The notes under the pieces: model-generated | Seen by the model: the letters and a program-made list of their open reading frames with translations, nothing else | Databases searched by the model: none | What the model was told of the DNA's origin: nothing | Shown here: positions 10,963-63,492 of the stretch, piece after piece | Layout: every line of letters begins with the position of its first letter | How positions within the stretch are numbered: the first letter of the stretch is position 1 | DNA from: a virus | Lineage: Duplodnaviria; Heunggongvirae; Uroviricota; Caudoviricetes | Virus record (IMG/VR): IMGVR_UViG_3300046096_000179 | Coordinates: 63,124-127,123 of that record | Length of the DNA: 64,000 bases | Strand: one strand, 5' to 3' | Position numbers and translations under genes: made by a program

Positions 10963-10963
10963 A

Positions 10964-14409: not shown

Positions 14410-14419
14410 CCCGATTGCA

Positions 14420-14463
14420 CGGCGGTTCCGTGCTACAATGTCATAACGAAGGAGTTTCAAAAC
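14420..14463 (+). promoter_or_regulatory. promoter-leader cassette variant (ccgtgctacaat)
   Basis: ccgtgctacaatgtcataacgaaggagtttcaaaacATG. Confidence 0.5.
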
Positions 14464-19098: not shown

Positions 19099-19249
19099 CT
19101 TACCGCGCATAAAGACTCCACACAAAAGAGTCTGGGGCGACATACTTTTTCTAACCAAAGGGTTTAGGTCTGAGTGGTACCAAGAAACAGGTGGTATGGT
19201 TTTGGATGTTGCTGAGGTGCTTGCTGAAATTTGCTATGATGTTGTCTGA
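19085..19249 (+). CDS. DLP-leader family small protein (MVLNDLPRI...)
   Basis: Leader variant. Confidence 0.45.
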   Translation: MVLNDLPRIKTPHKRVWGDILFLTKGFRSEWYQETGGMVLDVAEVLAEICYDVV

Positions 19250-19388
19250 CCTACCTAAGTTGAATGATACCAAACCGTTGTCATGCTTTCTTCTGATTAG
19301 ATTTGATCATGGGATTTACACGCATTTGAAGTTTGTTCGACAAGTGACATGGATGGCACGAAACATTGATGCTGCATTTGGATTATGA
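19236..19388 (+). CDS. DLP-leader family small protein (MMLSDLPKL...)
   Basis: Leader variant. Confidence 0.45.
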   Translation: MMLSDLPKLNDTKPLSCFLLIRFDHGIYTHLKFVRQVTWMARNIDAAFGL

Positions 19389-19573
19389 AGACTACTCACC
19401 TACCTAAGATCGACCCTGAGCAGTTTGAGCCACTGAATAAAAGTTGGTGGTCGCATAGATGGAGTGTATCCAACCCCATCATTCGTTTTCCGAGCATACT
19501 TGGGTTCTTCCTTGAACTCGCAAGAATGCGACAAACGATCCAAGACTCTATGGCTACAGTTAGAATTCCGTGA
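19385..19573 (+). CDS. DLP-leader family small protein (MKTTHLPKI...)
   Basis: Leader variant. Confidence 0.5.
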   Translation: MKTTHLPKIDPEQFEPLNKSWWSHRWSVSNPIIRFPSILGFFLELARMRQTIQDSMATVRIP

Positions 19574-19607
19574 TACAATAGAACCATCAACACGAGGAAC
19601 CTTCATC
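19561..19607 (+). promoter_or_regulatory. promoter-leader cassette
   Basis: ccgtgatacaatagaaccatcaacacgaggaaccttcatcATG. Confidence 0.55.
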
Positions 19608-21707: not shown

Positions 21708-21887
21708 ATGAAAAATACTGACTTGCCCACAATACAAGCCCACCATGGTCATGTATATTGGGATGATTTGTGGGTGGTTATTCGGAAAACCGAACGAGTT
21801 TTTGATGGTCAGTTTGGTACCACAATTGGTGCATACGTATATCAACATTTGTTTTTAAACGTCAATAATCAACTATGCGACAGCTAA
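21708..21887 (+). CDS. DLP-leader family (MKNTDLPTI...)
   Basis: First member of the main array; preceded by hairpin ctatgttaaattcaacatag and a TATAAT-like box. Confidence 0.5.
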   Translation: MKNTDLPTIQAHHGHVYWDDLWVVIRKTERVFDGQFGTTIGAYVYQHLFLNVNNQLCDS

Positions 21888-21914
21888 ATATAGTTCGGTG
21901 TTCTTTTTCATACC

Positions 21915-22079
21915 ATGAAAACATCTGACTTCCCAAAAATCATCAAGCCGCCAACGACCCAACGACTTCTATCCGATGTGATGCAATGTGTTTTCACTTG
22001 TCTTAATGGTAAAATGTTCGTCACGGGACAGATGATCAGAGTTCCAATCATGCGTACATTCGATAGCATCAATAAATGA
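21915..22079 (+). CDS. DLP-leader family (MKTSDFPKI...)
   Basis: Below the track threshold; coordinates approximate. Confidence 0.45.
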   Translation: MKTSDFPKIIKPPTTQRLLSDVMQCVFTCLNGKMFVTGQMIRVPIMRTFDSINK

Positions 22080-22273
22080 AACTCAGAGACTTACCGATGG
22101 TTCCCAACACGGTGCATGATGGTCTGAATGGTTATCGAGTCAGCACAGATGTTTCTATTGGTGGTGCATGGAGAGGATATTCTTCTGCTACTATGAGTAA
22201 CGACGGATGTTGTGCTTTCTTAGTTATTGATGAGACATTTGAAATGATTTTTGACGATTATGAAAACTACTGA
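22076..22273 (+). CDS. DLP-leader family (MKLRDLPMV...)
   Basis: aaATGAaac overlap with the upstream stop. Confidence 0.5.
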   Translation: MKLRDLPMVPNTVHDGLNGYRVSTDVSIGGAWRGYSSATMSNDGCCAFLVIDETFEMIFDDYENY

Positions 22274-22463
22274 CCTACCATTAAACAATCACATTGATGT
22301 GTTGAGCACCGATGATTTGTGGGTGGTTGTTGGAATTGTTAAAGGTGCCGTAGGGCTTGCCACCAAAAGGTTTGCCACCAAAAGGTTTTGGTTAGACCCG
22401 GTTTACTTCAAACTGGGATTGCCCGTTAGAAATCAAATTTTTAACTTGGCGTCAAAAGAATGA
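22260..22463 (+). CDS. DLP-leader family (MKTTDLPLN...)
   Basis: Leader atgaaaactactgacctacca. Confidence 0.5.
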   Translation: MKTTDLPLNNHIDVLSTDDLWVVVGIVKGAVGLATKRFATKRFWLDPVYFKLGLPVRNQIFNLASKE

Positions 22464-22639
22464 AGACTACTGACTTACCTTTACAATATCGGATTGATGT
22501 ACGGATTCGGTGGGGTGTTTTTTTGCGTGTTGAATACGCCGCAGAGGATGTCACCCAAACGTCTATGTTTGAGCCGGTTTACTTAAAACTGATATTGCCT
22601 GTTAGAACTCAAATTTTGCAGTTAGCTCCAAAAGAATGA
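22460..22639 (+). CDS. DLP-leader family (MKTTDLPLQ...); body paralogous to the previous member (PVYFKLGLPVRNQIFNLA vs PVYLKLILPVRTQILQLA)
   Basis: ATGA overlap. Confidence 0.45.
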   Translation: MKTTDLPLQYRIDVRIRWGVFLRVEYAAEDVTQTSMFEPVYLKLILPVRTQILQLAPKE

Positions 22640-22800
22640 AGACGAGTGAGCTACCTAAAATCAACAAGTCACCACCGATCTATTATCAGATGGTTGGATT
22701 CATAGTGACTGTTGTTTCGATGAATGAAACAGGCAAACTTCCAATGATTCTTGTTGGCGTCCATGAAAACGATTGGGTGGTGGCTGTCTTGAGTTGTTAA
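22636..22800 (+). CDS. DLP-leader family (MKTSELPKI...), hydrophobic body
   Basis: ATGA overlap; approximate end. Confidence 0.4.
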   Translation: MKTSELPKINKSPPIYYQMVGFIVTVVSMNETGKLPMILVGVHENDWVVAVLSC

Positions 22801-24291: not shown

Positions 24292-24858
24292 TCAACGCAT
24301 AGAAACGCGCTGTGACAAGCGGTAGACCCCAATGCATACCCTAGCATCAACCAATGTTAAACGACGGCCCCTAGGGGCGTTTAAAGCGCTAGAAATGACG
24401 TCTGGGTTCTGTGTAGGATTATCATACCCAGTTTTGTTTCGGTAGTTTTCCGCTTTCTTATCAAGAAGCTCTTGGCTCTTTGATGGATGGTCAACATCAT
24501 AGACGTTGATCATTGCGGCGCGGAATGCATCCGTCCCATATGGCGTTATACTGGTATTGTTGTTCATGTTTAGCCACTCAGATGAAGTGGCGCAATCATT
24601 CTCAACTAAGAACTGGGTTTCGTAGTCATGAACATCACCAACTTCGTCTTTGGTTTTGATACTGATGACTCGGAAAGCAGCAAGACCTTCTTCCTCAATG
24701 ATTTTGTGAACGACCTTGGAACTGGTCTGGTATCCACCCGGTTGCATGAACTCTGATGGGTGACAGCCTTTAGCGTAACGACAACCGGCATATCGTTTGC
24801 CAGAAGCAACATGCTGAATGATGTAAAAATAAGGGACGTAAATAGGTTTGCTGGACAT
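24292..24858 (-). CDS. GIY-YIG homing endonuclease, shortened paralogue
   Basis: PIYVPYFYIIQHVASGKRYAGCRYAKG; after one repeat unit the C-terminus reads into GC-rich non-homologous sequence. Confidence 0.7.
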   Translation of the reverse strand: MSSKPIYVPYFYIIQHVASGKRYAGCRYAKGCHPSEFMQPGGYQTSSKVVHKIIEEEGLAAFRVISIKTKDEVGDVHDYETQFLVENDCATSSEWLNMNNNTSITPYGTDAFRAAMINVYDVDHPSKSQELLDKKAENYRNKTGYDNPTQNPDVISSALNAPRGRRLTLVDARVCIGVYRLSQRVSMR

Positions 24859-25044: not shown

Positions 25045-25671
25045 ATGTCAAATGAACTCACCCCATCGCAAGCAGCACTCATCCCACAGTACGTTTCGGA
25101 ATATGTGGCACACGGTTTCTACACCAGTTCCGGTACCCGTGAAGATGATGAACACATCGCTCGTGCAACCGAGCGCGCATACAAGAACGCTATTTCCCGC
25201 AAGCGCCACGATTCCATCACTAAGGTTCCGATGGTCGTGGTTGGTTCCATGAAGCAAGTCGTTCACATGATGAAGCAAACCATTCAAGGTGATGCCGACG
25301 CAATCAAATCCACGATTCAATCTGCTCGTCACAATGGTCAATTCCAAGCAGCAACTGATGCTCGATTCATGTTTCACTTGGAAGTTCTTGGGGTGGGTGG
25401 GGACGCGCTTGAATGGCATTGCGTATCTCCTTTGTACCGCAAGAACGGTGGGGTGTTTTTATTTCCTGAAATTTGTTTCTGCGTTCGTCCACCGATCCGT
25501 TTTGATGATGACTCTGACGGCAATCCCGTTCCGATCTGGAATGAAGAATCTGCGCCGACTGTTTATACACCTCAGAATCCAACTGACATCAACGATGTCA
25601 CGAAATACTCCGTTGAAGACATCGAAGACCTCCCCAACACCGTTGTCATTCAGGGAAAGAGCTTCCTTTAA
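25045..25671 (+). CDS. hypothetical protein
   Basis: Driven by ttgtgatacaatacaggca cassette variant between the two GIY-YIG genes. Confidence 0.55.
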   Translation: MSNELTPSQAALIPQYVSEYVAHGFYTSSGTREDDEHIARATERAYKNAISRKRHDSITKVPMVVVGSMKQVVHMMKQTIQGDADAIKSTIQSARHNGQFQAATDARFMFHLEVLGVGGDALEWHCVSPLYRKNGGVFLFPEICFCVRPPIRFDDDSDGNPVPIWNEESAPTVYTPQNPTDINDVTKYSVEDIEDLPNTVVIQGKSFL

Positions 25672-26902
25672 GCACAAAGTTAACGGGAAGGGGTTTGCTA
25701 AACATTGATTGGACTACGTAATACGTTTTGTTAGTCAAAACATCAACATACCCTTCCCTGCCAAGCTTCCCACTCTTGATGCTGATGTATCTCCCTTCCC
25801 CATATGTTCGGTTAAGGGATTTCATCACGCCAATAAGGAATACTTCATCTACGGTATCCCACAGATATTCAAATCGACCAAAATCACCTCGTAATATTTC
25901 GTTGGTGATTTTGTCTTCTGTGTTTTTATGTCTTGATGTCCGTATGCGATCAATGATGATTGGTGAGTGACTGGCGTTTTCTACGCCATATCTTTCTCTC
26001 ATCGTATCTTTGGCCTTCTCTCTAACTATCGGACACAGCAGTGCGGTTTCAACGCCACGGCTTTCCATATTGGTTTGCCTACTCTTGGCTTGAATCTCGG
26101 GAGACTTCATTTGATGATCGACCCCATATCGATCCATCAATGTTGATGTAGCTTTTGCTCTAACCACGGGACATTGTAGTACACTCCCAAATCCTCGTCG
26201 TTCCATGTTGGTCTGTTTGGTCTTTTCCCGGATTTCTTGTGCCTGCTGTGGAAATTCCGTTCCATATCTCTCAGTCATGGTCTGTCGGAATCTATCATGC
26301 GATTCTGGATTATGCATTGGATTTTCGACTCCATATCTATCATTCATGGTCTGTCGAACGGTTGCTTTAACTTCTTTGGCTTGCATTGGGTGGTCAACTC
26401 CCCATCTCTCTTGGCATGTTTTCTTAGCCATTTCCATGACTTCAGGTAACTGCAACGTGCAATCAACTCCATGACGAGCCTGATTTGTCTGTCTGATGGA
26501 TTCTATAAATGCTGGATGATGGGAGACGTTTTCGACGTCATATCGGTCTCTTAGGATGTTCTTAAATTCTTCCGAACCAAATGCGGGGCGTTTGTTGTTG
26601 TGCATATTGAACCACTCTGATGAAGCAGCACAATTATTCTCAACCAAGAAATTTGTCTCGTAGTCATGGACATTGCCAATTTCATCTATGGTCTTAATTT
26701 CGACCACGACAAATGCATCAATGCCTTCTTCCTTGATGATTTTCTTAATCTTCTTGGAACTGGTTTTGTAACCATCTTCGGTCATGAACTCTGATGGATG
26801 ACAGCCTTTGGCAAAGCGACAACCGGCATACTTCTTTCCAGAAGCAACATGCTGAATGACGTAAAAGTAAGGGACGTGCGGATAAATAGGTTTGCTGGAC
26901 AT
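25646..26902 (-). CDS. GIY-YIG homing endonuclease with seven tandem ~33-aa repeats
   Basis: PIYPHVPYFYVIQHVASGKKYAGCRFAKG; repeats of the form ...R(Y/W)GV(E/D)(N/H)PM..PE(V/I)..K... Confidence 0.8.
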   Translation of the reverse strand: MSSKPIYPHVPYFYVIQHVASGKKYAGCRFAKGCHPSEFMTEDGYKTSSKKIKKIIKEEGIDAFVVVEIKTIDEIGNVHDYETNFLVENNCAASSEWFNMHNNKRPAFGSEEFKNILRDRYDVENVSHHPAFIESIRQTNQARHGVDCTLQLPEVMEMAKKTCQERWGVDHPMQAKEVKATVRQTMNDRYGVENPMHNPESHDRFRQTMTERYGTEFPQQAQEIREKTKQTNMERRGFGSVLQCPVVRAKATSTLMDRYGVDHQMKSPEIQAKSRQTNMESRGVETALLCPIVREKAKDTMRERYGVENASHSPIIIDRIRTSRHKNTEDKITNEILRGDFGRFEYLWDTVDEVFLIGVMKSLNRTYGEGRYISIKSGKLGREGYVDVLTNKTYYVVQSMFSKPLPVNFVLKGSSFPE

Positions 26903-27078: not shown

Positions 27079-27261
27079 ATGCAAATAGAAAATCTACCCA
27101 CGATCCAAGAATGCTATACATCCGTAAGTGTTGGGTTGTGGGTAGTTCTTCGAGAAACAATTTTCAGCATGTCGGACGCCAACACGGTAGACTCTTTGGA
27201 TGACCCGTTGTATGTTGCGGTTGCTAGTGACGTCGATTGGGTGTTTAATGAAAACTACTGA
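27079..27261 (+). CDS. DLP-leader family (MQIENLPTI...)
   Basis: Downstream of the aactgtgatacaatacatac cassette. Confidence 0.45.
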   Translation: MQIENLPTIQECYTSVSVGLWVVLRETIFSMSDANTVDSLDDPLYVAVASDVDWVFNENY

Positions 27262-27415
27262 CCTTCCTGTTTTGGCACCAATTGTCTCTGGTGTATTGAA
27301 GGCTGATGCGTGGCATCATATCATCTGGGTATCAATGACCTCTACACCATGGGATAATCTTGGGAAGAAGGTGCGCGCTTCTCTGATTAAATTGATGCCG
27401 TATGATATCTTCTAA
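27248..27415 (+). CDS. DLP-leader family (MKTTDLPVL...)
   Basis: Leader. Confidence 0.5.
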   Translation: MKTTDLPVLAPIVSGVLKADAWHHIIWVSMTSTPWDNLGKKVRASLIKLMPYDIF

Positions 27416-27584
27416 TCTTCCACAAATCAAACTGCCACACGCCATGAACTGGTATGTACATCAAATGGATGCCGCAACAAGCGTGATGATGTTGAAATCC
27501 ATCAAGATTTGGGATGCTGTATACCAACAAGTTGATTGGGCTGTCTCTGACCATTTGTGGAGATTGACCGATGAAAACATCTGA
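27402..27584 (+). CDS. DLP-leader family (MISSNLPQI...)
   Basis: Leader variant. Confidence 0.5.
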   Translation: MISSNLPQIKLPHAMNWYVHQMDAATSVMMLKSIKIWDAVYQQVDWAVSDHLWRLTDENI

Positions 27585-27753
27585 CCTGCCACAAATCAGA
27601 TCATCCTACGGTGAAGTCTTTGGCGTTGGATTATGGGCAGTTCTTAGAAAAGTTGCTTCTGAAACTGACCTGTATATTGCAGCAGAAGAACGACCATGTG
27701 TTGTTGATGTAAATGTTGATCGGATTTTGTGGAATATTTACTACTTGTTATGA
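27571..27753 (+). CDS. DLP-leader family (MKTSDLPQI...)
   Basis: Upstream stop lies in accgATGAaaacatcTGA. Confidence 0.5.
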   Translation: MKTSDLPQIRSSYGEVFGVGLWAVLRKVASETDLYIAAEERPCVVDVNVDRILWNIYYLL

Positions 27754-27827
27754 AAACATCTGAATTATCAAAAAATCCAACTAAAACCAAGTCCTCTGAA
27801 CTTGTCATGGAGAGTAATCATTGGTAA
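27750..27827 (+). CDS. DLP-leader family, very short (MKTSELSKNPTKTKSSELVMESNHW)
   Basis: Approximate coordinates; may be a decayed member. Confidence 0.3.
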   Translation: MKTSELSKNPTKTKSSELVMESNHW

Positions 27828-27913
27828 TTCCTTTCCGTGGGGATTGGCTATAATAAAAGGTATTGATGCGGATGACTCGGGGTGGCAAGTTCTGAAACGA
27901 TTGGTTGGTAAAA

Positions 27914-28033
27914 ATGAAAATCTCTGACATACCGAAAATTGACCATGTGTTGTATAATACATGCGCCGCTTCTTGGTATGCCGGTGATATGGACGGCGCA
28001 TCATACGAGATGGTAAAAATAATCAAGATTTGA
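27914..28033 (+). CDS. DLP-leader family (MKISDIPKI...)
   Basis: Approximate coordinates. Confidence 0.35.
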   Translation: MKISDIPKIDHVLYNTCAASWYAGDMDGASYEMVKIIKI

Positions 28034-28101
28034 AATTTTGGTTACCAGCAAGTGGATTGGGCTGTCTCCGAGCATCTGTGGTATATTAGAGTTGATTGAA
28101 T

Positions 28102-28266
28102 ATGAAAACATCTGACCTGCCGAAAATCCAAGTTGAGAGCCAGAGTATTTTGAGCGTGTCGTGGAAAGCAATCATACCATGTCTGCCGTGGTCGAACGAT
28201 CCGTCAAATATGCGGCCGGACGTTCATTGTCACCTACGTTGGTTGATTAAGCATGAAAACCTCTGA
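28102..28266 (+). CDS. DLP-leader family (MKTSDLPKIQVE...)
   Basis: Stops at the TGA inside the next member's TCTGAC. Confidence 0.45.
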   Translation: MKTSDLPKIQVESQSILSVSWKAIIPCLPWSNDPSNMRPDVHCHLRWLIKHENL

Positions 28267-28456
28267 CCTACAATACATACAGAACATAGATAATGGTTAC
28301 TTGGATGACGCACCGTCGGACACTTACTTTGCAGTAGTCGAAGACTCCACATTATTTGGATACCAATCCCCTTACCTATGGGACTTGGTTGACGCAATTG
28401 ACGATCCATTATTTAAAATCGAAATTCACATCTATGACACCTACCATGATCAATAA
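28253..28456 (+). CDS. DLP-leader family (MKTSDLQYI...)
   Basis: Leader. Confidence 0.5.
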   Translation: MKTSDLQYIQNIDNGYLDDAPSDTYFAVVEDSTLFGYQSPYLWDLVDAIDDPLFKIEIHIYDTYHDQ

Positions 28457-28943: not shown

Positions 28944-29131
28944 ACAGCTATCGGTCATTGAACCATCAATGTCGTTTGTCAACATCAAAAAAAGAGTTGA
29001 CTCCATCTCCGGTAGGAGAGGGTTTGATTATGTTTCAAGGTCTTACCTATGGGTTGACATGATCAACGCGGATTTTGGTAGAGAACTTTTTACGGCGGTT
29101 CATTCGGCATTCAGTGGGTGCGTCCGTGGAA

Positions 29132-29302
29132 TTGAGTGAACTGCCGAAGTCTCATCAGTTAGCGGCGAGATTTGATGTAATTAGTCGCCCACTCGCTGGC
29201 GGCATTTTAAGCGCGATCATGGAGAATGAGCATAATGTATGGCGATGGGTGCGTTATCCGGTGCAGCAAGTTCTTGAACGGGTAAATGATGAAATCTTCT
29301 GA
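29132..29302 (+). CDS. DLP-leader family, TTG-start variant ((M)SELPKSHQ...)
   Basis: ttgagtgaactgccgaag matches the minus-strand TTG variant at 50357. Confidence 0.4.
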   Translation: MSELPKSHQLAARFDVISRPLAGGILSAIMENEHNVWRWVRYPVQQVLERVNDEIF

Positions 29303-29483
29303 CCTACCGAAAATACCAATCCCAAGAACCGGGTGGAATGTCTGTTTTGATGCGCATGTTTCGATGAATGACGCATTGGATGAATCATCTGGGATTGAGG
29401 TGCAGTCCGAAGTGATTAACAAAATCGCGTTTCCGGTCTTGGGTATCATGCGCCGGATTTGTGCCAGTACACCGAGTTCTTGA
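29286..29483 (+). CDS. DLP-leader family (MMKSSDLPKI...)
   Basis: Leader. Confidence 0.5.
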   Translation: MMKSSDLPKIPIPRTGWNVCFDAHVSMNDALDESSGIEVQSEVINKIAFPVLGIMRRICASTPSS

Positions 29484-29491
29484 ACGAGTGA

Positions 29492-29692
29492 ATGATGAAA
29501 TCTTCTGACCTGCCAACCATTGCTGTCCCTATCACGAACTTCCATGTTGTTCATGATGTATCAATCCTGTTTGGTGATTTTCTTGGTTTCGCCGAGTACG
29601 AAACATTTGATAAAATCAGAACGCCTGTGATGAATTCTTTGATTCCAACACTTTTTTCCATGGAACTCGAATTTTTAAGTTATAAAATATAA
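29492..29692 (+). CDS. DLP-leader family (MMKSSDLPTI...)
   Basis: Leader. Confidence 0.5.
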   Translation: MMKSSDLPTIAVPITNFHVVHDVSILFGDFLGFAEYETFDKIRTPVMNSLIPTLFSMELEFLSYKI

Positions 29693-29694
29693 CC

Positions 29695-30129
29695 ATGAAC
29701 CAACCCTACATTCAAAATGTTTCACGTCAGGCTCTTGCAACCGGTCAGCACCTCAGACCCAGTGACAATACAATTCTGATTCAGATTGCCGACTGTATTC
29801 AGGGATGCCCTACTCCAACACCCAACAATACCTTCGTTGAAATCCATCAGTTCAACTTCATGGACTCTGAGGAAGATGACCCAATGTTCCCACCAGAGGC
29901 AAAGATCACCACAGAACAAGCCAAGGAAATTGTTGGCATCCTTCGGAATGCATTGGCTAAAAATCAGAACGTGATTGTCCATTGCAATGCCGGTCTTTGT
30001 CGGTCAGGTGCTGTTGCTGAGGTTGGTGTCATGATGGGATTCACGGATACCTTTGCCACTAGGATTCCAAACCTGATGGTCAAGAAGTATCTGATGCGAG
30101 AACTTGGCTGGCTTTATGAAGATCGATGA
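29695..30129 (+). CDS. Cys-based protein phosphatase (dual-specificity/PTP-like, CX5R)
   Basis: VHCNAGLCRSGAV active-site P-loop. Confidence 0.7.
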   Translation: MNQPYIQNVSRQALATGQHLRPSDNTILIQIADCIQGCPTPTPNNTFVEIHQFNFMDSEEDDPMFPPEAKITTEQAKEIVGILRNALAKNQNVIVHCNAGLCRSGAVAEVGVMMGFTDTFATRIPNLMVKKYLMRELGWLYEDR

Positions 30130-30268
30130 CTTACCAAAGATTCACTTGAGTGAATGCAAAGACCTTGCACATTTGATTCGACTCCCACATGGAACATCTT
30201 CAATTGTGATGACTGTCAGCATGCGATGGTCGTTTAAAATCAATCATGCTCTTGGGTTTCGGTTGTGA
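30116..30268 (+). CDS. DLP-leader family (MKIDDLPKI...)
   Basis: Overlaps the phosphatase stop; approximate. Confidence 0.4.
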   Translation: MKIDDLPKIHLSECKDLAHLIRLPHGTSSIVMTVSMRWSFKINHALGFRL

Positions 30269-30447
30269 AAACCTATGAACTACCAAAAATCAATGCAAAA
30301 GACTGGAGCGTCGTAGAATTCTCCGTTACCTTTCTTGGAGGTCATGTTGGAGTTTCTGACTCTGGAGCGAAGCTAAAGACTTACAAAATCACCAATGAAG
30401 TTCACCAAAATTTCGGCGAAATTGTTAGAAACCTGTGGATTCTGTGA
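30265..30447 (+). CDS. DLP-leader family (GTG start; (M)KTYELPKI...)
   Basis: Leader; last member of the array. Confidence 0.45.
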   Translation: MKTYELPKINAKDWSVVEFSVTFLGGHVGVSDSGAKLKTYKITNEVHQNFGEIVRNLWIL

Positions 30448-36466: not shown

Positions 36467-36475
36467 AATAAAATT

Positions 36476-36550
36476 CCTGAATAGCATAACGGTAGTGCCG
36501 AGAACTCATAATTCTTAAAGTGCTGGTTCGAACCCAGCTTCAGGAACCAA
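36476..36550 (+). tRNA. tRNA-Met (anticodon CAT; could also be a lysidine-modified tRNA-Ile2)
   Basis: Full cloverleaf by hand: acceptor tcctgaa/ttcagga, D gcat-aacggta-gtgc, anticodon gagaa-ctCATaa-ttctt, T gctgg-ttcgaac-ccagc, discriminator a, encoded CCA. Confidence 0.85.
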
Positions 36551-47855: not shown

Positions 47856-48401
47856 TCAAGTCCACAGACTTCTGTAGTATTTTCCGAACAATCTCAAACC
47901 ATTGGCGATTCGTTTCTGTCGCTGATCATGTTTAACAAACTCTCCATTCAGAATCATCTCAGTTTCTTCATCGTCACAAACAATCTGCTCAAATGTCCAG
48001 ATCATCTCATCAAGAATCCACACCCACCGCGCATGGAAATGCCCATCGGTGTGATAGTCGTCCTCTGCAGGGAGTAGAGTCGAGTGTAGCCAGATTGGTA
48101 CATCAGAGTCCTCTGTGTATGGAGAGCCGTGCTTCTGTTCTTTGAGCTTTTTCAGCATTGGTAAGATGATGAGCGCCAGAGTGTGATCGGTATTCCAAGT
48201 ATCAAAGTCATCGATCCGAACATCAATCTTTCGCTTCTTCTTAGAATGCACCCACTCACAGAAGTCATTGAGCCAAGTCTCGGATAGCCATTCACCAAAC
48301 GCGTAAACACGGTCATCTTCCTTGTCCATCCAGAACAGAAGTATTCCGGCTATCTGGTATGGCCCATACCAAGTGGTGTAGTTTGAGATTTTAACTTTCA
48401 T
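47856..48401 (-). CDS. hypothetical protein
   Basis: 181 aa. Confidence 0.5.
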   Translation of the reverse strand: MKVKISNYTTWYGPYQIAGILLFWMDKEDDRVYAFGEWLSETWLNDFCEWVHSKKKRKIDVRIDDFDTWNTDHTLALIILPMLKKLKEQKHGSPYTEDSDVPIWLHSTLLPAEDDYHTDGHFHARWVWILDEMIWTFEQIVCDDEETEMILNGEFVKHDQRQKRIANGLRLFGKYYRSLWT

Positions 48402-48419
48402 TATATTGTAGTAGGGAAA

Positions 48420-49745
48420 CCTAACCGTCTTTAGCTGTTAGGAGGAATTGCGAAAGGGTAAATAGTGACATGGAACAACTCAAAGCATTCAAATATAGAA
48501 TCTATCCGACAGCAGATCAAATCAATCGGTTGTCACGGTTCTTTGGTGCAAAGCGTTGGGTCTATAATCACTTCTTGAAGTCTAACACTGAACGCTACAA
48601 AAATCAAGAGAAGCATCTATCTAATTTTGATTGTAACAAAGAAATCACATTCCTCAAGAAAAATGCTGATACATCTTGGTTGAAAGATGTTGACGATTGG
48701 GTCTTGAAACATGCTTCAGAGGACTTGGCAACAGCCTACAAAAACTTCTTTGCTTCTATTACTGGTAAGCGCAAGGGACCGAAAGTTGAACTCCCGACGT
48801 TCAAGAAGAAGTCAAACAGACAATCATACCGGACTCGCGGCGTGAAGGTTGATTTTGAAAATGGCACATTCACTGTGCCGAAAATCAAAAACATACCATG
48901 CAAGTTCCATCGACATTTCCTTGGAACTATCAAGAACGCAACCATCTCCAAAACTCCTGATGGGAAGTATTTCGTTTCATTCTTGGTTGATGCCAACGTC
49001 GCATTGCTGCCACAAACAGAGCGCGAAGTTGGCATTGACTTTGGGATTAAATCATTGGCGGTTCTATCCACCGGACATGAAATTCAGCCATTGAACACAC
49101 AGCTTGAGAAAATCAATCGAGCTATCAAACGTGCTCAGAGAATCCTTGCACGAAAAACAAAGGGTTCGACGAACAGAGAGAAGCAACGAGTATTACTGGC
49201 TAAATTATTTGCCCGGAAGACTCGAATACGCGAACACTATTATCACGAGATTTCGAGTTTTTTGGTCAAGAACTTTGATGCAATTTACTTGGAATCACTG
49301 AATATCAAAGGGATGATGAAGAACAGGAAACTGTCCAGAGCAATCCAAGAATGCTCGTGGTTTTCGCTGATCTCAAAAATATCATACAAATCCAACTTCT
49401 ACGGTAAGACCTTTCACCAGATTTCCAGATGGTTCCCATCATCCAAGACTTGTTCTTGTTGTGGGTTCAAACTGGACAAGTTAAGCCTTGACGTTCGTGA
49501 ATGGTCGTGCCAATCTTGTGGAACACATCATGATCGTGACCTAAACGCTGCCGTGAATATCCTATACCAAGGGCAGATGGATTTGTATGAACAAAAACAA
49601 CCGCAGGAAACAGGCGGTTTGGAACTAAAAATTCCATATTCCTTGCAGAAACATACCACTAAAATCGAGAGATCAGCGGAAGAAATTGCCGTTGTTGGTA
49701 TGTGGAGCAGGAAAGCCTAACAGTCTTTAGCTGTTAGGTAGTTTA
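48420..49745 (+). mobile_element. IS200/IS605-family insertion sequence carrying only tnpB (IS1341-like)
   Basis: Terminal palindromes cctaaccgtctttagctgttagg (48420..48442) and cctaacagtctttagctgttagg (49716..49738) flank an intact tnpB; same ends found on the MITE at 39144..39371. Confidence 0.7.
48470..49720 (+). CDS. tnpB: TnpB (OrfB_IS605 RNA-guided RuvC-like nuclease)
   Basis: N-terminal AFKYRIYPT...FG..RWVYN; RuvC-I GIDFGIK; RuvC-II YLESLN; zinc finger CSCCGFK...CQSCG; RuvC-III HHDRDLNAAVNI. Confidence 0.85.
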   Translation: MEQLKAFKYRIYPTADQINRLSRFFGAKRWVYNHFLKSNTERYKNQEKHLSNFDCNKEITFLKKNADTSWLKDVDDWVLKHASEDLATAYKNFFASITGKRKGPKVELPTFKKKSNRQSYRTRGVKVDFENGTFTVPKIKNIPCKFHRHFLGTIKNATISKTPDGKYFVSFLVDANVALLPQTEREVGIDFGIKSLAVLSTGHEIQPLNTQLEKINRAIKRAQRILARKTKGSTNREKQRVLLAKLFARKTRIREHYYHEISSFLVKNFDAIYLESLNIKGMMKNRKLSRAIQECSWFSLISKISYKSNFYGKTFHQISRWFPSSKTCSCCGFKLDKLSLDVREWSCQSCGTHHDRDLNAAVNILYQGQMDLYEQKQPQETGGLELKIPYSLQKHTTKIERSAEEIAVVGMWSRKA

Positions 49746-49897
49746 CTTTTGATGTTGTTTAGAGATTCATAGATGTCATCATACATTTTGCTACATTCTC
49801 GAATGAAGAAGTAGACTGTCGGCGGTGGTCTACCTACACGAAACCCCAATCGGAATGGCTTGACCCATCGACTACCGATTCTTGGTAGATCATTCAC
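49727..49897 (-). CDS. DLP-leader family (GTG start (M)NDLPRI...) ending ...KLPNS-stop inside the IS right-end palindrome
   Basis: Stop TAA lies in ctacctaacagcTAAagactgttagg (reverse complement of 49716..49745). Confidence 0.4.
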   Translation of the reverse strand: MNDLPRIGSRWVKPFRLGFRVGRPPPTVYFFIRECSKMYDDIYESLNNIKSKLPNS

Positions 49898-50043
49898 TCG
49901 CATTTGGTTGACCTTAATATTGACTCGATTTTGTTTTGCATGTCGTGCAAATCCTCACAGTAGCTTGGATAAGCAATCCTGTTGTCTATCTCAACTAGAA
50001 CGTTAACATAAACATGAATCTTAGGTAATTCAGAGGTCTTCAT
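49894..50043 (-). CDS. DLP-leader family (MKTSELPKIHVY...)
   Basis: ATGAAGACCTCTGA overlap with the upstream stop. Confidence 0.45.
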   Translation of the reverse strand: MKTSELPKIHVYVNVLVEIDNRIAYPSYCEDLHDMQNKIESILRSTKCE

Positions 50044-50194
50044 TGATTTTAACCAAGTTGACAGTTGACTCGTTGATACCAGCCCTTGCTACAGCACAAC
50101 CTCCCGGCGGTAACGGATAAGGCCACCACCATTGAATGAACAATAGCAATATACTATCGTGTTCGTGAATCTTTGGAAGGTCAGAAATTCTCAT
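50030..50194 (-). CDS. DLP-leader family (MRISDLPKI...)
   Basis: Internal start at M54 of track ORF 50030..50353. Confidence 0.45.
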   Translation of the reverse strand: MRISDLPKIHEHDSILLLFIQWWWPYPLPPGGCAVARAGINESTVNLVKINEDL

Positions 50195-50204
50195 TCGATT
50201 CGAT

Positions 50205-50357
50205 CTACGTTGAGACTGTATGGTTTGAGCCAACGAAATGTTCCATGATTCCAAAGAAAGTGGCTCGGAAATAAAGAATATTTCCACTACCACATACCTC
50301 TCCCATGACTTTAAATCTTGCCCAACCGGTATGACCGATCTTTGGTAGTTCACTCAA
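50205..50357 (-). CDS. DLP-leader family, TTG-start variant ((M)SELPKIG...)
   Basis: ttgagtgaactaccaaagatcgg, same as the plus-strand variant at 29132. Confidence 0.35.
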   Translation of the reverse strand: MSELPKIGHTGWARFKVMGEVCGSGNILYFRATFFGIMEHFVGSNHTVST

Positions 50358-50517
50358 TTTCACAATGCTTCGTCAAGTTGATTTTGGAATCCATCATCCC
50401 ACCCAATGCAAGTTTAAACATTGATATTCCGCCAATGTAGATGGTATACCCGATTCCGTGCTTTATATCCAAGGAAATACCATCTATGTGAATCTTTGGT
50501 ATTTCAGAAGTCTTCAT
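50350..50517 (-). CDS. DLP-leader family (MKTSEIPKI...)
   Basis: aaaATGAagacttctgaaatacc; ATGA overlap with the cupin gene stop. Confidence 0.45.
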   Translation of the reverse strand: MKTSEIPKIHIDGISLDIKHGIGYTIYIGGISMFKLALGGMMDSKINLTKHCEIE

Positions 50518-51038
50518 TTTTGTTTTGGAACATCAAACACCAGAGTCAGTCTATCCACGTCAGACACATTCTTGGCGCTATGGGGCTTCTTGTTGTCAAA
50601 CCAGAAGAAAGTCCCCGGCCTGATTATACGCGATTCTCCATCCACTGTATATTCATAATCCCCCTGAATGGACAGATGGTATCTATCCCGAGTCAGATAG
50701 TATGCGCCATCATCAATATGGGTAGACACAGCACCGCCGGGAGGCAGACGAAAGAATGCACACCGGGAGATGTTCTTCAGACCATACCGAGCCCAGAATG
50801 CATGCACCGATGGGAACAGTTTATATGCCCGTGTATTGGCCTGAAGTTCAGAGTCCTTGATGTTATCTCCGGGATTCTGGATAGCGCCCATGATCAGAGG
50901 CAGGAAACCGGGTGGGTTCTTATCACCACCAATGTTCTGCATCTGACTGACCATGCTCCACATAGAGGAATTCTGCTCAAGTTGAATCAGGATGTCCTGA
51001 ATCGGCTCTTGCATGGATATGATGCGAAAATTATTCAT
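50514..51038 (-). CDS. cupin-fold protein, possibly an Asp/Asn beta-hydroxylase-like oxygenase (tentative)
   Basis: RLPPGGAVSTHIDDGAYYL...KPHSAKN suggests an HxD...H metal site. Confidence 0.4.
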   Translation of the reverse strand: MNNFRIISMQEPIQDILIQLEQNSSMWSMVSQMQNIGGDKNPPGFLPLIMGAIQNPGDNIKDSELQANTRAYKLFPSVHAFWARYGLKNISRCAFFRLPPGGAVSTHIDDGAYYLTRDRYHLSIQGDYEYTVDGESRIIRPGTFFWFDNKKPHSAKNVSDVDRLTLVFDVPKQK

Positions 51039-51063
51039 TTGATTGGTGGCTTTACTAAGTTTA

Positions 51064-51228
51064 TCACAGAGAATCGCCCAATGCTGCTAACTGAAGCATA
51101 ATTGCTTTACCACCAAGGAGTTCTTTGGCTGCTATGCAATAGATGATGGTATTTTCAGAAAATGTAAACTTACATTCAAAAATGTCTTGGATGTGATAAT
51201 TGTTTGATGGCAGGTCACTCACTCGCAT
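51064..51228 (-). CDS. DLP-leader family (MRVSDLPSN...)
   Basis: Internal start M33 of track ORF 51064..51324. Confidence 0.45.
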   Translation of the reverse strand: MRVSDLPSNNYHIQDIFECKFTFSENTIIYCIAAKELLGGKAIMLQLAALGDSL

Positions 51229-51389
51229 TGGATTCAAGCTCTTCAATTCGATTTGCTGCTTCCTCCAGCAGTGAAGCCAACCGATCCGACTCTCCATTCT
51301 GGACAGACCGGCGACCAACAGCATTCTTACGAATTTCGGCTCGGATTCTTAGCTTCTGAACAAGAGATTGCGTATCAAATGGTGGGTAA

Positions 51390-51671
51390 TCACGACCAAC
51401 CATACTTTGCCTTCAGTTGAACGTAGGTTTTCCGATCAATCACTTCCTGCAAAAGATACCGTTGTGTATACTCAGTCATTTCTTCTGGCGTCATGTCTCG
51501 CTCACCACGAAAAGAAACCAATCCATGTTCAACATCATCAACCAACACGTTAGTCAATCCTTTATAACACATTTCATTCTTCACCGAAATGAAATTGTCA
51601 ATCGTTGCTGAGATGTCAGCACCAATTTCGATGTAGACGGTTTTGTAGTTACTGATTTTTGGATAGTTCAT
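51390..51671 (-). CDS. hypothetical protein
   Basis: 93 aa. Confidence 0.5.
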   Translation of the reverse strand: MNYPKISNYKTVYIEIGADISATIDNFISVKNEMCYKGLTNVLVDDVEHGLVSFRGERDMTPEEMTEYTQRYLLQEVIDRKTYVQLKAKYGWS

Positions 51672-52033
51672 TCAATGTCCCCACGGTTAATGCAGCGCAA
51701 TGCGTTGCGGTGTTGTTCTGCGGCTTCTTTGGTTCGGTGGGCCACGCCTTCGGCTATTACCTTTTCAATCCCTGCTTTAGAACAAAGATACTGAACTCCA
51801 CAATTATCGAATGTCCAAACATCACTCTTGATCGGAACCTCTTTAAGCGGTTCCTGCCATTCATGGCGACCTACGCGAATCATTTTAACTTCTGAGGGCT
51901 TGCTTCGGCATTCAACGTTTTTATGGAATGATGGTGACAGTGTGTCAACCCACCCCCAGTGTTCTTTGATTTGAATTTTAATCGTGCAGTCGTCTGCATA
52001 GGCTTTCATCAATTCGGCATGTGGGTGTTTCAT
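51668..52033 (-). CDS. hypothetical protein
   Basis: Minus-strand cassette variant (ttacaatagaacc) upstream. Confidence 0.5.
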   Translation of the reverse strand: MKHPHAELMKAYADDCTIKIQIKEHWGWVDTLSPSFHKNVECRSKPSEVKMIRVGRHEWQEPLKEVPIKSDVWTFDNCGVQYLCSKAGIEKVIAEGVAHRTKEAAEQHRNALRCINRGDIE

Positions 52034-52092
52034 GATTTAGGTTCCTTTTGTTGGTTTAGATGGTTCTATTGTAACACCAAAATCAACTGTAG

Positions 52093-52551
52093 TCAATCTC
52101 TACACAAAAACTTTTCCATGAACACTCCCTTTATGCTCTTGGAGTCGTCCTCAACTCCAAGTTCCTTGACCACCTTGGACATGACCAACTCGTTTGGCAA
52201 CCGAGATTTCTTTTCCAAGGTGAACCCAATCTTCTCTCCGGCAATAGCAACCGCAGAGCTACGACAGACTCCTGCATAGCAATGGACAACCACATCCCAT
52301 CCATTCCTATAACTGTTCAACAGGATGTTTGCAATTCTCTTGGCATCATCGTTTGTAATGGCGTTGTGATTGTTTTTGTCTTCTGTATCCTCGAAGATGA
52401 ATCGACAGACATATTTGAATTCATCTGGTGGTCGAGGAAACTGTCCTTCATCCTCATCAAGAATCTGGATTAAGACTGTATTCTTTGTGTCAGTGACAAC
52501 ATAATTTCCTTTTTGGATGTCATCCTTGGAATAGTGTTGGATCGTTGGCAT
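52093..52551 (-). CDS. Cys-based protein phosphatase (CX5R), paralogue 2
   Basis: VVHCYAGVCRSSAVA. Confidence 0.7.
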   Translation of the reverse strand: MPTIQHYSKDDIQKGNYVVTDTKNTVLIQILDEDEGQFPRPPDEFKYVCRFIFEDTEDKNNHNAITNDDAKRIANILLNSYRNGWDVVVHCYAGVCRSSAVAIAGEKIGFTLEKKSRLPNELVMSKVVKELGVEDDSKSIKGVFMEKFLCRD

Positions 52552-61078: not shown

Positions 61079-62186
61079 TTTCCTTGGTTGTCTCTGCCAA
61101 GTGAGCAGAGTTTTCTACGTTAAACATTTTCATTCTGGCAAAGTCCATCCCGACAATAAACTTCCGAAAGTAATTCAGGTCACCAAAACGATTCTTTAGC
61201 TGCTTCAGGATCATCTGATTCATGGCATTCAGGTCATCGGTTCGGATAATTGCCAGCAGGGAATCGCATGTCTTATATGGACCAGTTGAATCTGCAATTG
61301 CCTCAATGTCGTAATCGGAAGCATTCATACCAGCCCGATTTGTCTGAACAGATGACCACAATAGAATATCCATCTCAACCGCCAGTGCCCTTAGTTCCTC
61401 AGCAACGGATGTCTGGTAGGTATAGGTGTTGACTGTGGATGAATTCCTATATCTTGCTGATGCACAGATGCCCAAGTAATCAACAAAAATGACGTCGGGA
61501 ACAAATCCCTTCTTGTTCTTGAGTTCATCCAAGAGAATGCGAATAGTTGCCGCACTGGCAGTTCCTGTTGGATATTCCTTGATGACCAGCTTCCCATGCG
61601 TCTTCTCATTCAGCTTAGAAATCTTGTTCATGAACACCGCCTTGGGGATGTTCTTGATCTCGGATACGTTCTGGTTGAACATATTGGCATCAATTCTCTC
61701 GGCCACCCGCTTCTCGGCCAGTTCCAAGGTCACATACAGAACATTATACCCCTGCTGGAGATAGTCTGCGGCCAAGGAGCATTTAACGGCAGATTTTCCA
61801 ACGCCGCTATTGTGACTTGATATTCCGTTTGTGTAATACCGATGATTTGGATGGTTGACATGAATGTCAACAATTGGTATTTTATTTCCGGTTTTCCTGA
61901 TTACTCCGCTGCAGAATCCAGTTTTACATAAGTAGTCAGTGCGACCAAAAAGATGACGATCATGTGCCTTAACCCACCCATCGCGAGTCTCAAACAGGTG
62001 ATTTGCGTTGCAATTCACTGTAACCCCATCATCGGTCTCCAATACATATTCGTCATACATCCCCTTATGAAAAAAATCAGTAACCGATACCCACCCATCT
62101 GGAGATTCGATTTCAACATCATAGTCCCCCAAAAGGGACTCTATGTCCCCAATTTTAATTGTCATTACAGAAGAAAAATCGATCAT
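60975..62186 (-). CDS. 41: C-terminal split-intein fragment (IntC, 126 aa) fused to the C-terminal extein of the DnaB-family replicative helicase (T4 gp41-like)
   Basis: Intein blocks TVNCNANHLF (B) and VDIHVNHPNHRYYTNGISSHN (F/G) then Ser+1; extein SGVGKSAVKCSLAADYLQQGYNVLYV...IFVDYLGI...LRALAVE matches T4 gp41 (recalled). Confidence 0.8.
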   Translation of the reverse strand: MIDFSSVMTIKIGDIESLLGDYDVEIESPDGWVSVTDFFHKGMYDEYVLETDDGVTVNCNANHLFETRDGWVKAHDRHLFGRTDYLCKTGFCSGVIRKTGNKIPIVDIHVNHPNHRYYTNGISSHNSGVGKSAVKCSLAADYLQQGYNVLYVTLELAEKRVAERIDANMFNQNVSEIKNIPKAVFMNKISKLNEKTHGKLVIKEYPTGTASAATIRILLDELKNKKGFVPDVIFVDYLGICASARYRNSSTVNTYTYQTSVAEELRALAVEMDILLWSSVQTNRAGMNASDYDIEAIADSTGPYKTCDSLLAIIRTDDLNAMNQMILKQLKNRFGDLNYFRKFIVGMDFARMKMFNVENSAHLAETTKEIENEKETTGRRGNGTKQWGTSGSAKGAGQEFDFD

Positions 62187-63492
62187 GTTTAAAGAAATAT
62201 ATAATAAGTTATGCGAACGAGGTAAGAGTCGTCGAGAATTGTGGAGCGTCGGTAGCGGATTTCATCGACACCATGTAATCCCAAGACATGCGGGTGGGGT
62301 GGACTCCGAAGATAACTATACATACCTAACGGTTAGAGAACATATTATAGCACACTTTCTGTTGTGGAAGGTCAACAAAACACCAAACGATTTGCGGTCA
62401 ATGAGGATGTTGGGCGCAAGCCTGACACCAAATCAACGGAGAGAGACTGGGATTTTCTGTCGAGATAACAAAATAGGGATTTTCTCTGATGATTGGAATG
62501 GACTTTCGGAGGCCGGGAAGCGCGGAGGTAGCGCATGTCGAGATAACAAAATAGGGATACATGCACAAACTCCAGAAGAAAGACGAGAACTGGCATCCAT
62601 TGGCGGGAAAATTGGCGGAGCCCGTTGCTACTCTATTGGCGTTGGATTGTTTGGGATGTCTCGGGAAAAATTATTGGCAGCATGTAAATTGGGAGGAGAA
62701 GTTGGTGGTCGGGCAGGGAAGGGTATGGTTTTTTGGACAAACGGGCGCGATCAAACGCGAGCATTTGAATGTCCCGGCGATGGTTGGGTAAATGAGCAAT
62801 TGCCAACGGAGAAGCAACTAATCACCAGAGAAGAAAGAAAGACATCAATAAAATTTAGAATAAAAAATAAAAGAACTGGGGAAATGGGGGAATTTCTTCC
62901 GACCCCAAATTATTCAATCGAAGATTTTATTTTAAACGAACAGGATTGGGAACTTACAAGAAAATATCAGCGAGTAATGAAGCATAATGTTTACTTAAAA
63001 ATTTCCAATGAACTGTTGTCTGAATTCATCAATATGAATTGGAAGATTTTAGCAAACGTCAACAAAACACATCGCGATATAAAAGAGTTTCATTCGGAAA
63101 AGTCAACAGGCATATTCTATAAAAATAAAATAGAAACGAAAATACCTCTGAGGTTAGTTGACATCTTCGTATCGGAGGGCTGGTCTCTATATAAAGACAC
63201 TCTAACTAAAGTCGTATCTTTTGGGAAATATAAGATACAAATAAACCCAGAGCATCTAAGTCACTTCTTAAAGTTAGGGTGGACACAACAACGCTCAACG
63301 ACTCGTTCCCAGAAAACAAACCCAGGATGTATGATGAGATGCAAAACAACACACATACAAATAAAGGTTGAATTTCAAGACGTTGCGCTCATGCAACAAC
63401 ATGGGTTCTTTGTTTCTTCAACAAATGAACATGAGCGAAGGAGAATCAAAAGAATGTTACACAATCTTTCTCTTGATTCTAACATTGACTAA
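62185..63492 (+). CDS. free-standing HNH homing endonuclease with repeated C-terminal modules
   Basis: HNH motif GFHRHHVIPRHAGGVDSEDNYTYLTVREHIIAH; repeats CRDNKIGI...; ATG overlaps the IntC ATG on the opposite strand (CATG); alternative start 62143. Confidence 0.8.
   Translation: MFKEIYNKLCERGKSRRELWSVGSGFHRHHVIPRHAGGVDSEDNYTYLTVREHIIAHFLLWKVNKTPNDLRSMRMLGASLTPNQRRETGIFCRDNKIGIFSDDWNGLSEAGKRGGSACRDNKIGIHAQTPEERRELASIGGKIGGARCYSIGVGLFGMSREKLLAACKLGGEVGGRAGKGMVFWTNGRDQTRAFECPGDGWVNEQLPTEKQLITREERKTSIKFRIKNKRTGEMGEFLPTPNYSIEDFILNEQDWELTRKYQRVMKHNVYLKISNELLSEFINMNWKILANVNKTHRDIKEFHSEKSTGIFYKNKIETKIPLRLVDIFVSEGWSLYKDTLTKVVSFGKYKIQINPEHLSHFLKLGWTQQRSTTRSQKTNPGCMMRCKTTHIQIKVEFQDVALMQQHGFFVSSTNEHERRRIKRMLHNLSLDSNID

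Follow-up and report, generated by a model that had tools for sequence, protein, structure and literature searches.

The region described here is a stretch of 64,000 nucleotides (nt) from a tailed phage (IMG/VR record IMGVR_UViG_3300046096_000179, positions 63,124 to 127,123), which is referred to as the window and whose positions 1-64,000 are used for all feature coordinates. At 49727-51228 its minus strand holds a cluster of six very small genes with a similar leader, which belong to a larger family, and the cluster abuts an insertion sequence (IS) carrying tnpB. An earlier note on this DNA had listed six minus-strand open reading frames (ORFs) with a DLP-type leader between these limits, and all of them are present. 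They begin with M-[KR]-x-[STN]-[DE]-[LI]-P; five are chained from 50517 down to 49727, and the member at 51064-51228 is placed upstream of a non-family gene. Two close relatives, L001 and L004, were retrieved from IMG/VR with the 181-amino-acid (aa) protein encoded next to the cluster (88% amino-acid identity), and they are 82-87% identical to the window at the nucleotide level.

The minus-strand cluster

The first of the six members, MRVSDLPSN (54 aa, 51064-51228), overlaps the upstream 62-aa ORF by 14 nt and has a score of 22.6 with the weight matrix described below. The 62-aa ORF is a degenerate seventh member (51215-51403, minus strand) with the leader MVGRDYPPF; it in turn has a 14-nt overlap with the upstream 93-aa gene (51390-51671), whose frame of 93 codons is ended by the TGA at nt 12-14 of this leader. 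Between the first and the second member lies a non-family gene for a cupin / Asp-Arg-hydroxylase-like protein of 174 aa (50514-51038, minus strand; PF05118 at 1.5e-11, PF07883), and its TGA overlaps the ATG of the next leader (ATGA). The member which starts there, MKTSEIPKI (55 aa, 50350-50517), scores 30.2, and a protein identical to it is present in a public collection (P0012).

The next member (52 aa, 50205-50363) had been read as a TTG start followed by SELPKIG. The gene is real, but its start codon is the GTG at 50363 and the leader is VKLSELPKIG (V/M-K-L-S-E-L-P-K-I-G). It stops at a premature TAG, and the L001 orthologue (9203-9385) has GAA at this place and continues to a TGA within the next leader, so that the member looks decayed. 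It is followed by MRISDLPKI (54 aa, 50030-50194) and by MKTSELPKIHVY (49 aa, 49894-50043). The 3'-most member (58 aa, 49727-49903) was also correctly recognised by the earlier note, with a start that had to be moved from a GTG before NDLPRI to the ATG at 49903, which gives MRVNDLPRI. Four of the six cluster members are omitted by gene callers in public contigs. The cluster belongs to one operon with the order promoter (52096-52068), 121 aa, 93 aa, 62 aa, member, cupin, five members, the IS, the 181-aa gene and then the next promoter (47854). The 181-aa gene (phrog_11543; 47856-48401, minus strand) formerly overlapped the last member and is now parted from it by the IS.

The tnpB insertion

The inserted DNA at 48402-49746 (plus strand) is 1345 bp long and is a non-autonomous, tnpB-only insertion of the IS200/IS605 type. 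Its tnpB gene (48470-49720, plus strand; 416 aa) is uninterrupted and convergent with the array, and the protein has three Pfam domains, namely HTH_OrfB_IS605 (PF12323, 8e-17), OrfB_IS605 with the RuvC part (PF01385, 4e-21) and the Cas12f1-like_TNB zinc ribbon (PF07282, 5e-22). No Y1 TnpA is encoded inside the element, where only 68 nt lie between the left boundary and the tnpB ATG and 26 nt after the stop, and the element is therefore regarded as non-autonomous. Both ends carry subterminal hairpins of 23 nt each, which are similar to each other and stand in direct orientation; there are no inverted repeats at the ends. The left one is imperfect (CCTAACcGTCTTTAGCTGTTAGG, 48420-48442, plus strand, 18 nt from the boundary, -3.4 kcal/mol) and the right one is perfect (CCTAACAGTCTTTAGCTGTTAGG, 49716-49738, plus strand, 8 nt from the boundary, -7.4 kcal/mol, z = -3.0). 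The 3'-most member ends 6 nt from the tnpB stop, the latter lying in the 5' arm of the right hairpin and the stop of the member in its loop. It had been claimed that the last member of the cluster ends inside the palindrome of the IS, and this holds for the gene at 49727-49903 (TAA at 49727-49729) but not for the one at 51064-51228, which had been listed last.

L001 and L004 lack the insert at the corresponding site. In BLASTN comparison, window 49953-49748 corresponds to L001 9797-9999 and window 48401-47795 to L001 10001-10603, therefore window 48402-49746 is missing at the L001 junction. On the plus strand the occupied site reads TTTCAT / TATATTGTAGTAGGGAAA-CCTAACcGTCTTTAGCTGTTAGG-...tnpB...-GGAAAG-CCTAACAGTCTTTAGCTGTTAGG-TAGTTTAC / TTTTGATG and the empty site reads TTTCAT-A-TTTGACG, without target-site duplication. 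The comparison with relatives lacking the IS, which the earlier note had proposed, shows that both join the last member directly to the 181-aa gene, with neither hairpin nor tnpB between them; at the empty site the stop of the member overlaps the start of the 181-aa gene by 11 nt (ATGAAAGTTAA). The L001 protein ends ...ESLKNVKYES and that of the window ends ...ESLNNIKSKLPNS, because three native codons are swapped for six IS-encoded codons, S-K-L-P-N-S, and a TAA (49747-49727). The suggested truncation of a member is thus barely a truncation, since its tail was rewritten to ...KSKLPNS. The suggested insertion into the array did take place, although at its 3' edge, before the 181-aa gene, and not in its interior.

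All six contigs with the identical 181-aa protein contain the IS. The filled allele of L080, a contig 99.99% identical to the window strain, and the empty allele of L004 come from one sample, 3300046313, as does a third contig, L179. In L179 a 51-nt remnant (2535-2585), which consists of the last ~19 nt of tnpB with the right-end hairpin and end, sits between two family members, gives the upstream one the tail ...SKLPNS and abuts the ATG of the next leader. The same contig has a full homologous tnpB copy of 407 aa at another site (9731-11003), and the right-end hairpin also flanks other tnpB copies or remnants there. The remnant and the second tnpB site indicate that this IS lineage moved repeatedly within the phage group.

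The hexamer TTTCAT directly 5' of the left end (48396-48401, plus strand) is a candidate transposon-adjacent motif. Its reverse complement, ATGAAA, stands at the start of the 181-aa gene and of most leaders, and in a second instance TTTTCAT abuts the remnant of L179. From these two instances, one of them a remnant, it appears that family junctions may be preferred targets of the IS. The empty site of L001 has three mismatches to the predicted guide (TTTTGATGTTGTTTAGAGAT vs ATTTGACGTTCTTTAGAGAT). In the window, Rfam at the gathering threshold reported tRNA only and no omega RNA family, no dedicated model having been built. The nearest cellular TnpB proteins are 32-38% identical and belong to cyanobacteria, Methanosarcina and Firmicutes, which offers no clue to the host. 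A different TnpB of 414 aa is encoded in L001 (7552-8796), with part of its gene ~68% identical at the nucleotide level; it is located ~0.4 kb upstream of the L001 array and is co-oriented with it, and its ends have no hairpin resembling that of the window IS.

The family and its start module

About 32 members of the family, of 39-71 codons each, make up ~8% of the window, and the only part they share is the nine-residue start MKxSDLPKI. A 15-nt degenerate pattern (TGANNTNCCNAARAT, at most one mismatch) has 19 matches in the window vs 4.96 expected, and 0 of 100 shuffled sequences reach 19. With a 27-nt weight matrix at a score of at least 12, leader-like sites account for 32 of 35 matches, and shuffled sequences give 1.8. 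All real matches are on the strand of the local genes, that is on the plus strand at 8.8-30.4 kb and on the minus strand at 49.7-51.4 kb. The family therefore exists in both orientations, as the earlier note had supposed, with orientation merely tracking the direction of the surrounding genes. The plus strand has arrays of two members at 8867-9254, four at 18946-19573, six at 21708-22800, three at 29126-29692 and two at 30116-30447; a further plus-strand array at 27079-28456 has eight members, one of which is the 25-aa remnant at 27750.

Conservation, measured as information content, sets in at nt 1 and stops after nt 27; ahead of the ATG it stays flat, without a shared promoter or ribosome-binding site. 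Wobble positions 9, 18, 21 and 27 are near-random, position 12 being excepted. Codon 4 encodes nine different amino acids, and yet its third base is T in 30 of 32 leaders (p = 4e-14); 23 of 23 Ser/Thr codons at this position are T-ending vs a background of 29.5% (p = 6e-13). The T yields TGA at nt 12-14 (once TAA). A long upstream ORF stops within the module in 26 of the 32 leaders, at nt 12-14 in 18 of them, at nt 2-4 (ATGA) in seven and at nt 8-10 in one, and the upstream ORFs which stop at nt 12-14 include non-family genes. Of the two alternative frames, one has met a stop by nt 10 in 30 of the leaders, and the second is stopped at nt 14 in 28 of them. When paralogues are compared, the proportion of differing synonymous sites (pS) in codons 2-5, which lie within the overlap, is 0.50 and that of non-synonymous sites (pN) is 0.44; synonymous sites are constrained here, which speaks for selection on the nucleotides, and nt 1-14 of the module are constrained as DNA. 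Shine-Dalgarno (SD) pairing energies of the six cluster members range from +0.3 to -3.9 kcal/mol.

The second part of the module is conserved in another way. In codons 6-9 (L-P-K-I) pS is 0.78, that is saturated, and pN is 0.26, and such a combination of saturated synonymous sites with rare replacements speaks for selection on the peptide, so that L-P-K-I is constrained as a peptide. The corresponding values are pS 0.80 and pN 0.70 in codons 10-13 and 0.76 and 0.72 in codons 14-20. Beyond codon 10 the members are effectively unrelated; their bodies barely align, and isoelectric points (pI) vary from 4.1 to 10.2. The members are nevertheless real genes. Three of them compared with their L001 orthologues have in-frame ratios of non-synonymous to synonymous substitution rates (dN/dS) of 0.10 (50030-50194), 0.36 (50205-50363) and 0.48, and the 181-aa gene, used as a control, has 0.16. 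In the other frames the ratio exceeds 1 in five of six comparisons, including both for the member at 50030-50194, and equals 0.81 in the sixth.

Recoding of TAG was considered because none of 47 long ORFs ends with TAG and one member has an in-frame TAG. It was rejected, since every ORF lengthened by TAG read-through is antisense to gene blocks. The stops of the 47 long ORFs are TGA in 32 cases, TAA in 15 and TAG in 0, and the trinucleotide TGA is ~3.6 times as frequent as TAG in the window.

Differences between strains tend to begin or end at the module. The window and L081 are 99.6% identical as far as ~nt 19-31 of the leader at 27914. Beyond this point they are divergent or unrelated, until alignment at 95.8% identity resumes a single base ahead of the ATG that opens the leader at 28253, which amounts to a swap of bodies between two leaders. 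Compared with L001, homology starts at nt 12 of the leader at 50363 and stops at nt 19 of the leader at 50043, and one further breakpoint is located mid-gene. Thus, of the five points where homology breaks, four are situated at nt 0-31 of a leader, the module being ~16% of array sequence. Extra, missing or frameshifted members occur in L081, L083 and L084. The remnant at 27750-27827 (25 aa) has the leader MKTSELSKN, which lacks the Pro, the ORF at 27914-28033 is a 39-aa truncation of an 81-aa orthologue (L081 6569-6814), and L083 1235-1330 is a frameshifted copy of a member in another strain. These members, too, look decayed, and turnover of the arrays is fast.

Outside this phage lineage the family was not found. 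None of 31 members matches PHROGs or Pfam at E <= 0.01. Proteins of the same phage lineage were all that a word-indexed search retrieved from 5.8e9 protein clusters, and an exhaustive HMMER search of 1.84e9 representative proteins added to such proteins only two repetitive false positives. The exact DNA pattern for MKTSDLPKI has 0 matches in IMG/VR, and a looser leader pattern has 33 single matches there, of which only the one in L179 is real. No arrays and only chance-level loose leader matches were present at 77 more distant phage loci with the 181-aa gene. The same is true of arrays at 55 phage loci with cupin homologues, where six loose matches were counted in 334 kb, a density of 0.018 per kb vs 0.5 per kb in the window. 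A literature search on the conserved peptide strings gave no match. The family is fast-evolving, multigene and confined to one phage lineage.

Operons, promoters and genome context

The window contains 14 strand-coherent copies of a ~65-nt cassette of the form TTGACTACAgTTGATTTTcTGTGATACAATAGAACCATCGAAAC...AAGGAA...ATG, vs 0.07 expected, which corresponds to a sigma-70-like promoter with a 5' untranslated region (5'UTR). It is composed of TTGACT-N17-TGnTAcAAT (an extended -10), AGAACCATCGAAAC, an AAGGAA ribosome-binding site and the ATG. Copies are situated on the plus strand at 9448, 9772, 15808, 17367, 19571, 21222 and 35839 and on the minus strand at 47470, 47833, 52076, 53845, 54494, 55880 and 56528; the sigma-70-like promoter and 5'UTR which head the operon of the cluster occupy 52020-52118 (minus strand). 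In operons that begin with a cassette, the arrays follow downstream and the family genes are at the promoter-distal end; the array at 8867-9254 has no upstream cassette in the window. The T4-type late promoter TATAAATA and ATAAATA occur in the window at or below chance level, and none is near the arrays. Some cassettes fall inside listed ORFs, for example 19464-20582, and the true start of these is probably downstream.

Contigs flanking the window carry T4 gp2, a T4 baseplate protein, UvsX, a 930-aa PolB and a DenV-like gene. On the strength of the gp2, baseplate, UvsX and PolB genes the phage is placed in the T4 superfamily, without a close cultured relative. Megablast, blastn and tblastn against GenBank phages detected no relative of the region nor of a 606-aa neighbour. 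Window 30-1262 is the C-terminal part of a 930-aa family-B DNA polymerase cut by the window start, the complete gene being present in L265 and L266, and the ORF at 19464-20582 is a second one that matches a PHROG annotated as DNA polymerase. An NAD-salvage pair at 13429-15786 encodes a fusion of NMN adenylyltransferase and Nudix (326 aa) and a nicotinamide phosphoribosyltransferase (440 aa). A single tRNA-Met (CAT) is found at 36475-36549, near the switch from the plus to the minus gene block. Four homing-endonuclease-like genes are located at 16081-16902, 24292-24858 and 25646-26902 on the minus strand and at 62143-63492 on the plus strand. They are of GIY-YIG (SegE and LEM-3 types), DUF7487 and phrog_655 types, lie antisense to or between gene blocks near family arrays and vary between strains; L082 holds a different ORF in place of the one at 24292-24858.

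Interpretation and alternative explanations

It is considered probable that these genes form a coupled family of tiny genes with a dual-role 27-nt module, later hit by a tnpB-only IS at the edge of one array. The first 14 nt of the module (ATGAnnnnnnnTGA) act as a junction at the nucleotide level: a stop at nt 2-4 or 8-10 shuts one alternative frame, a stop at nt 12-14 shuts the second, and a new frame is opened. A ribosome that ends the upstream ORF would terminate within the module and could restart at its ATG. The following codons, 5/6-9, would give each protein an N-terminal tag for one common partner, and [DE]-L-P-K-I is most likely such a shared docking or targeting tag on unrelated bodies. 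As selection keeps the module conserved, it may also serve as micro-homology for cassette exchange. The tnpB element inserted 3' of TTTCAT, directly upstream of the ATG of the 181-aa gene, cutting the overlap with the last member and supplying it with an IS-encoded tail and stop. We infer that the family genes have early accessory functions.

Several points weigh against this explanation. SD energies of the family do not differ from those of random positions (p = 0.12) or of other genes (p = 0.31), hence the apparent lack of ribosome-binding sites is alone no proof of coupling. The TGA itself partly dictates the D/E at position 5, which is why the peptide signal rests mainly on L-P-K-I. The dN/dS values of 0.36 and 0.48 are based on few sites, and AlphaFold2 on the family alignment gave a predicted local distance difference test (pLDDT) of 63 and a predicted template modelling score (pTM) of 0.24, so that no fold is assignable. 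The position of breakpoints at the module might simply reflect that no other stretch of the arrays is conserved, and the transposon-adjacent motif is based on one clean junction and one remnant.

The leader might be a T4-like capsid-targeting sequence, and the proteins would in that case be packed in the prohead core, injected and directed against restriction or other defences. The analogy is suggested by the membership of the phage in the T4 superfamily, by the nine-residue N-terminus as the only shared part of the proteins and by the MKT with which both leaders start, and T4 internal proteins are likewise diverse with a common N-terminus of only ~10 residues (PMC3012670, PMC9026906). We hold it to be rather unlikely, as the leader does not end in an (L/I)-x-E cleavage motif and has no likeness to MKTYQEFIAE past MKT, there are ~32 genes in 64 kb vs 3-5 in T4, pI values of 4.1-10.2 are not uniformly basic, most arrays are in operons headed by sigma-70-like promoters and no TATAAATA-type late promoter is nearby. 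If the whole 27-nt module were purely a nucleic-acid signal, such as the operator of a RegA-like repressor or a recombination site, the peptide would be irrelevant; the nucleotide constraint on nt 1-14 and the coincidence of recombination breakpoints with the module agree with it. The randomised wobble of codons 6-9 (pS 0.78) next to conserved replacement sites (pN 0.26), the retention of Leu through both CTN and TTR codons, the conservative K/R and D/E exchanges and a three-base periodicity that fits coding selection, and not an RNA- or DNA-binding site, make this idea improbable.

It is far less credible that the proteins are precursors resembling ribosomally synthesised and post-translationally modified peptides (RiPPs), whose leader is recognised by the cupin / hydroxylase-like enzyme of the cluster, for example for hydroxylation of D/N at position 5. 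A conserved leader on variable bodies, the translational linkage of the PF05118 enzyme within the chain and the D, E or N at position 5 speak for it. Against it, family arrays are missing from the 55 phage loci with cupin homologues, where loose leader matches stay at chance level; in L001 the array lacks a cupin, and in the window the other arrays are far from it. A leader of nine residues is also rather short to serve for recognition, and the bodies are not Cys-, Ser- or Thr-rich. The co-occurrence result at the 55 loci led to the rejection of the cupin as leader-modifying enzyme. That the ORFs are artefacts, chance open frames behind a dispersed DNA repeat containing an ATG, can be given hardly any weight. 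The gene callers did skip four of six members, homologues outside the lineage are lacking and the structure model is of low confidence, but in-frame dN/dS is 0.10-0.48 with values above 1 in five of six off-frame comparisons, each module opens a frame of 39-71 codons running to the next module, all members are on the local gene strand and the module shows wobble periodicity. Practically no room is left for the hairpin at 49716-49738 as a native bidirectional terminator of the array, for which its position between convergent genes and a consensus scan marking it as terminator-like on the plus strand could be quoted. The earlier note had named the same C-terminus in genomes lacking the IS as the sign of a native hairpin; L001 and L004 show a different C-terminus and no hairpin at the orthologous junction, hence the hairpin is not native. 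Moreover, a near-identical copy in direct orientation stands at the other end of the 1345-bp insert, and in L179 this hairpin is found next to further tnpB copies or remnants. The terminator reading is refuted by the empty site.

Returning to the coupled family with its dual-role module, a wider and still speculative version, which is possible and not the likeliest outcome, would make the module a portable junction that ends any incoming frame, restarts translation and adds a common tag, and so lets the phage capture small ORFs, with the arrays as a nursery of accessory or anti-defence proteins sent to one partner. The shared partner of such a portable junction could be the prohead core, by analogy to the T4 capsid-targeting sequence, or a host hub. 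D-[IL]-P-x-[IF] may resemble the C-terminal peptide of FtsZ, and the order polar-hydrophobic-hydrophobic-basic-hydrophobic may resemble a ClpX N-terminal recognition motif. Since TTTCAT is the reverse complement of the ATGAAA of the module, every junction would also be a possible landing pad for a TnpB element.

The IS event, a further case of a familiar type, is in itself ordinary. It does provide a clean, dated TnpB insertion in a T4-type phage, and filled and empty alleles in one metagenome are a setting in which RNA-guided homing between co-infecting phages could be looked for. The family is the more unusual part, its module having two separable constraints, the stops in both frames and the L-P-K-I peptide. 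Such a module offers a concrete model of how numerous tiny genes could be built into the operons of large phages with no ribosome-binding site for each; it also suggests how cassettes swap and possibly how diverse proteins reach one destination. Such families are probably under-counted, because standard gene callers missed four of six members here.

Comparison with known systems

The T4 capsid-targeting sequence is the best precedent, by analogy, for a short shared N-terminus in this phage group. The T4 internal proteins (IPI, IPII, IPIII) are, like the family, small and dissimilar apart from ~10 common N-terminal residues, and their loci vary between relatives; the targeting sequence is sufficient for packaging (PMC3012670, PMC9026906). 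In T4 the propeptide ends with the prohead-protease site (L/I)-x-E (PMC9026906), whereas the family alignment shows residues such as H, G, Q, N, T, K or P at position 10, with no conserved Glu after the leader. MKTYQEFIAE and MKxSDLPKI have only M-K-T in common, and the family has ~ten times more genes, chained by overlaps of 14 or 4 nt. With such mismatches in cleavage motif, sequence and gene number the family is not filed under T4 internal proteins. Nor does the family co-occur with a dedicated modifying enzyme as in RiPP systems: the 55 cupin loci have no family arrays, and the L001 array is without a cupin.

The window IS has the same TnpB helix-turn-helix, RuvC and zinc-ribbon domains as tnpB-only IS200/IS605 elements (IS608, ISDra2 and ISGst types; Meers et al. 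2023, PMC10055086), most tnpB elements being non-autonomous (PMC10055086). It also shares with them subterminal hairpins, the lack of inverted repeats, of target duplication and of an internal tnpA, and insertion directly 3' of a short AT-rich motif, which is a candidate here. It differs in its location in a lytic-type phage genome, and its guide RNA, target motif and activity are putative.

The repeated early-promoter cassettes (PeSLs) of T4-type phages (PMC2839356) and the module are both short repeats at gene junctions in hyperplastic regions of variable gene content, and in both cases differences between close relatives break at the repeat (at four of five breakpoints for the module). PeSLs are intergenic units of a sigma-70-like promoter and a stem-loop terminator (PMC2839356), whereas the module is coding, has no promoter and is conserved from the ATG on; the separate 14-copy promoter cassette of the window resembles PeSLs more than the module does. 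With ATGA-type coupled genes the family shares an upstream stop a few nt from the downstream start and, apparently, little or no separate ribosome-binding site. In the family, however, this geometry is set in a repeated conserved module that closes both alternative frames, and the commonest overlap is 14 nt in place of 4 or 1. The family and its dual-purpose module are thus a variation on known themes, namely hyperplastic-region cassettes, coupled overlapping genes and leader-tagged protein sets.

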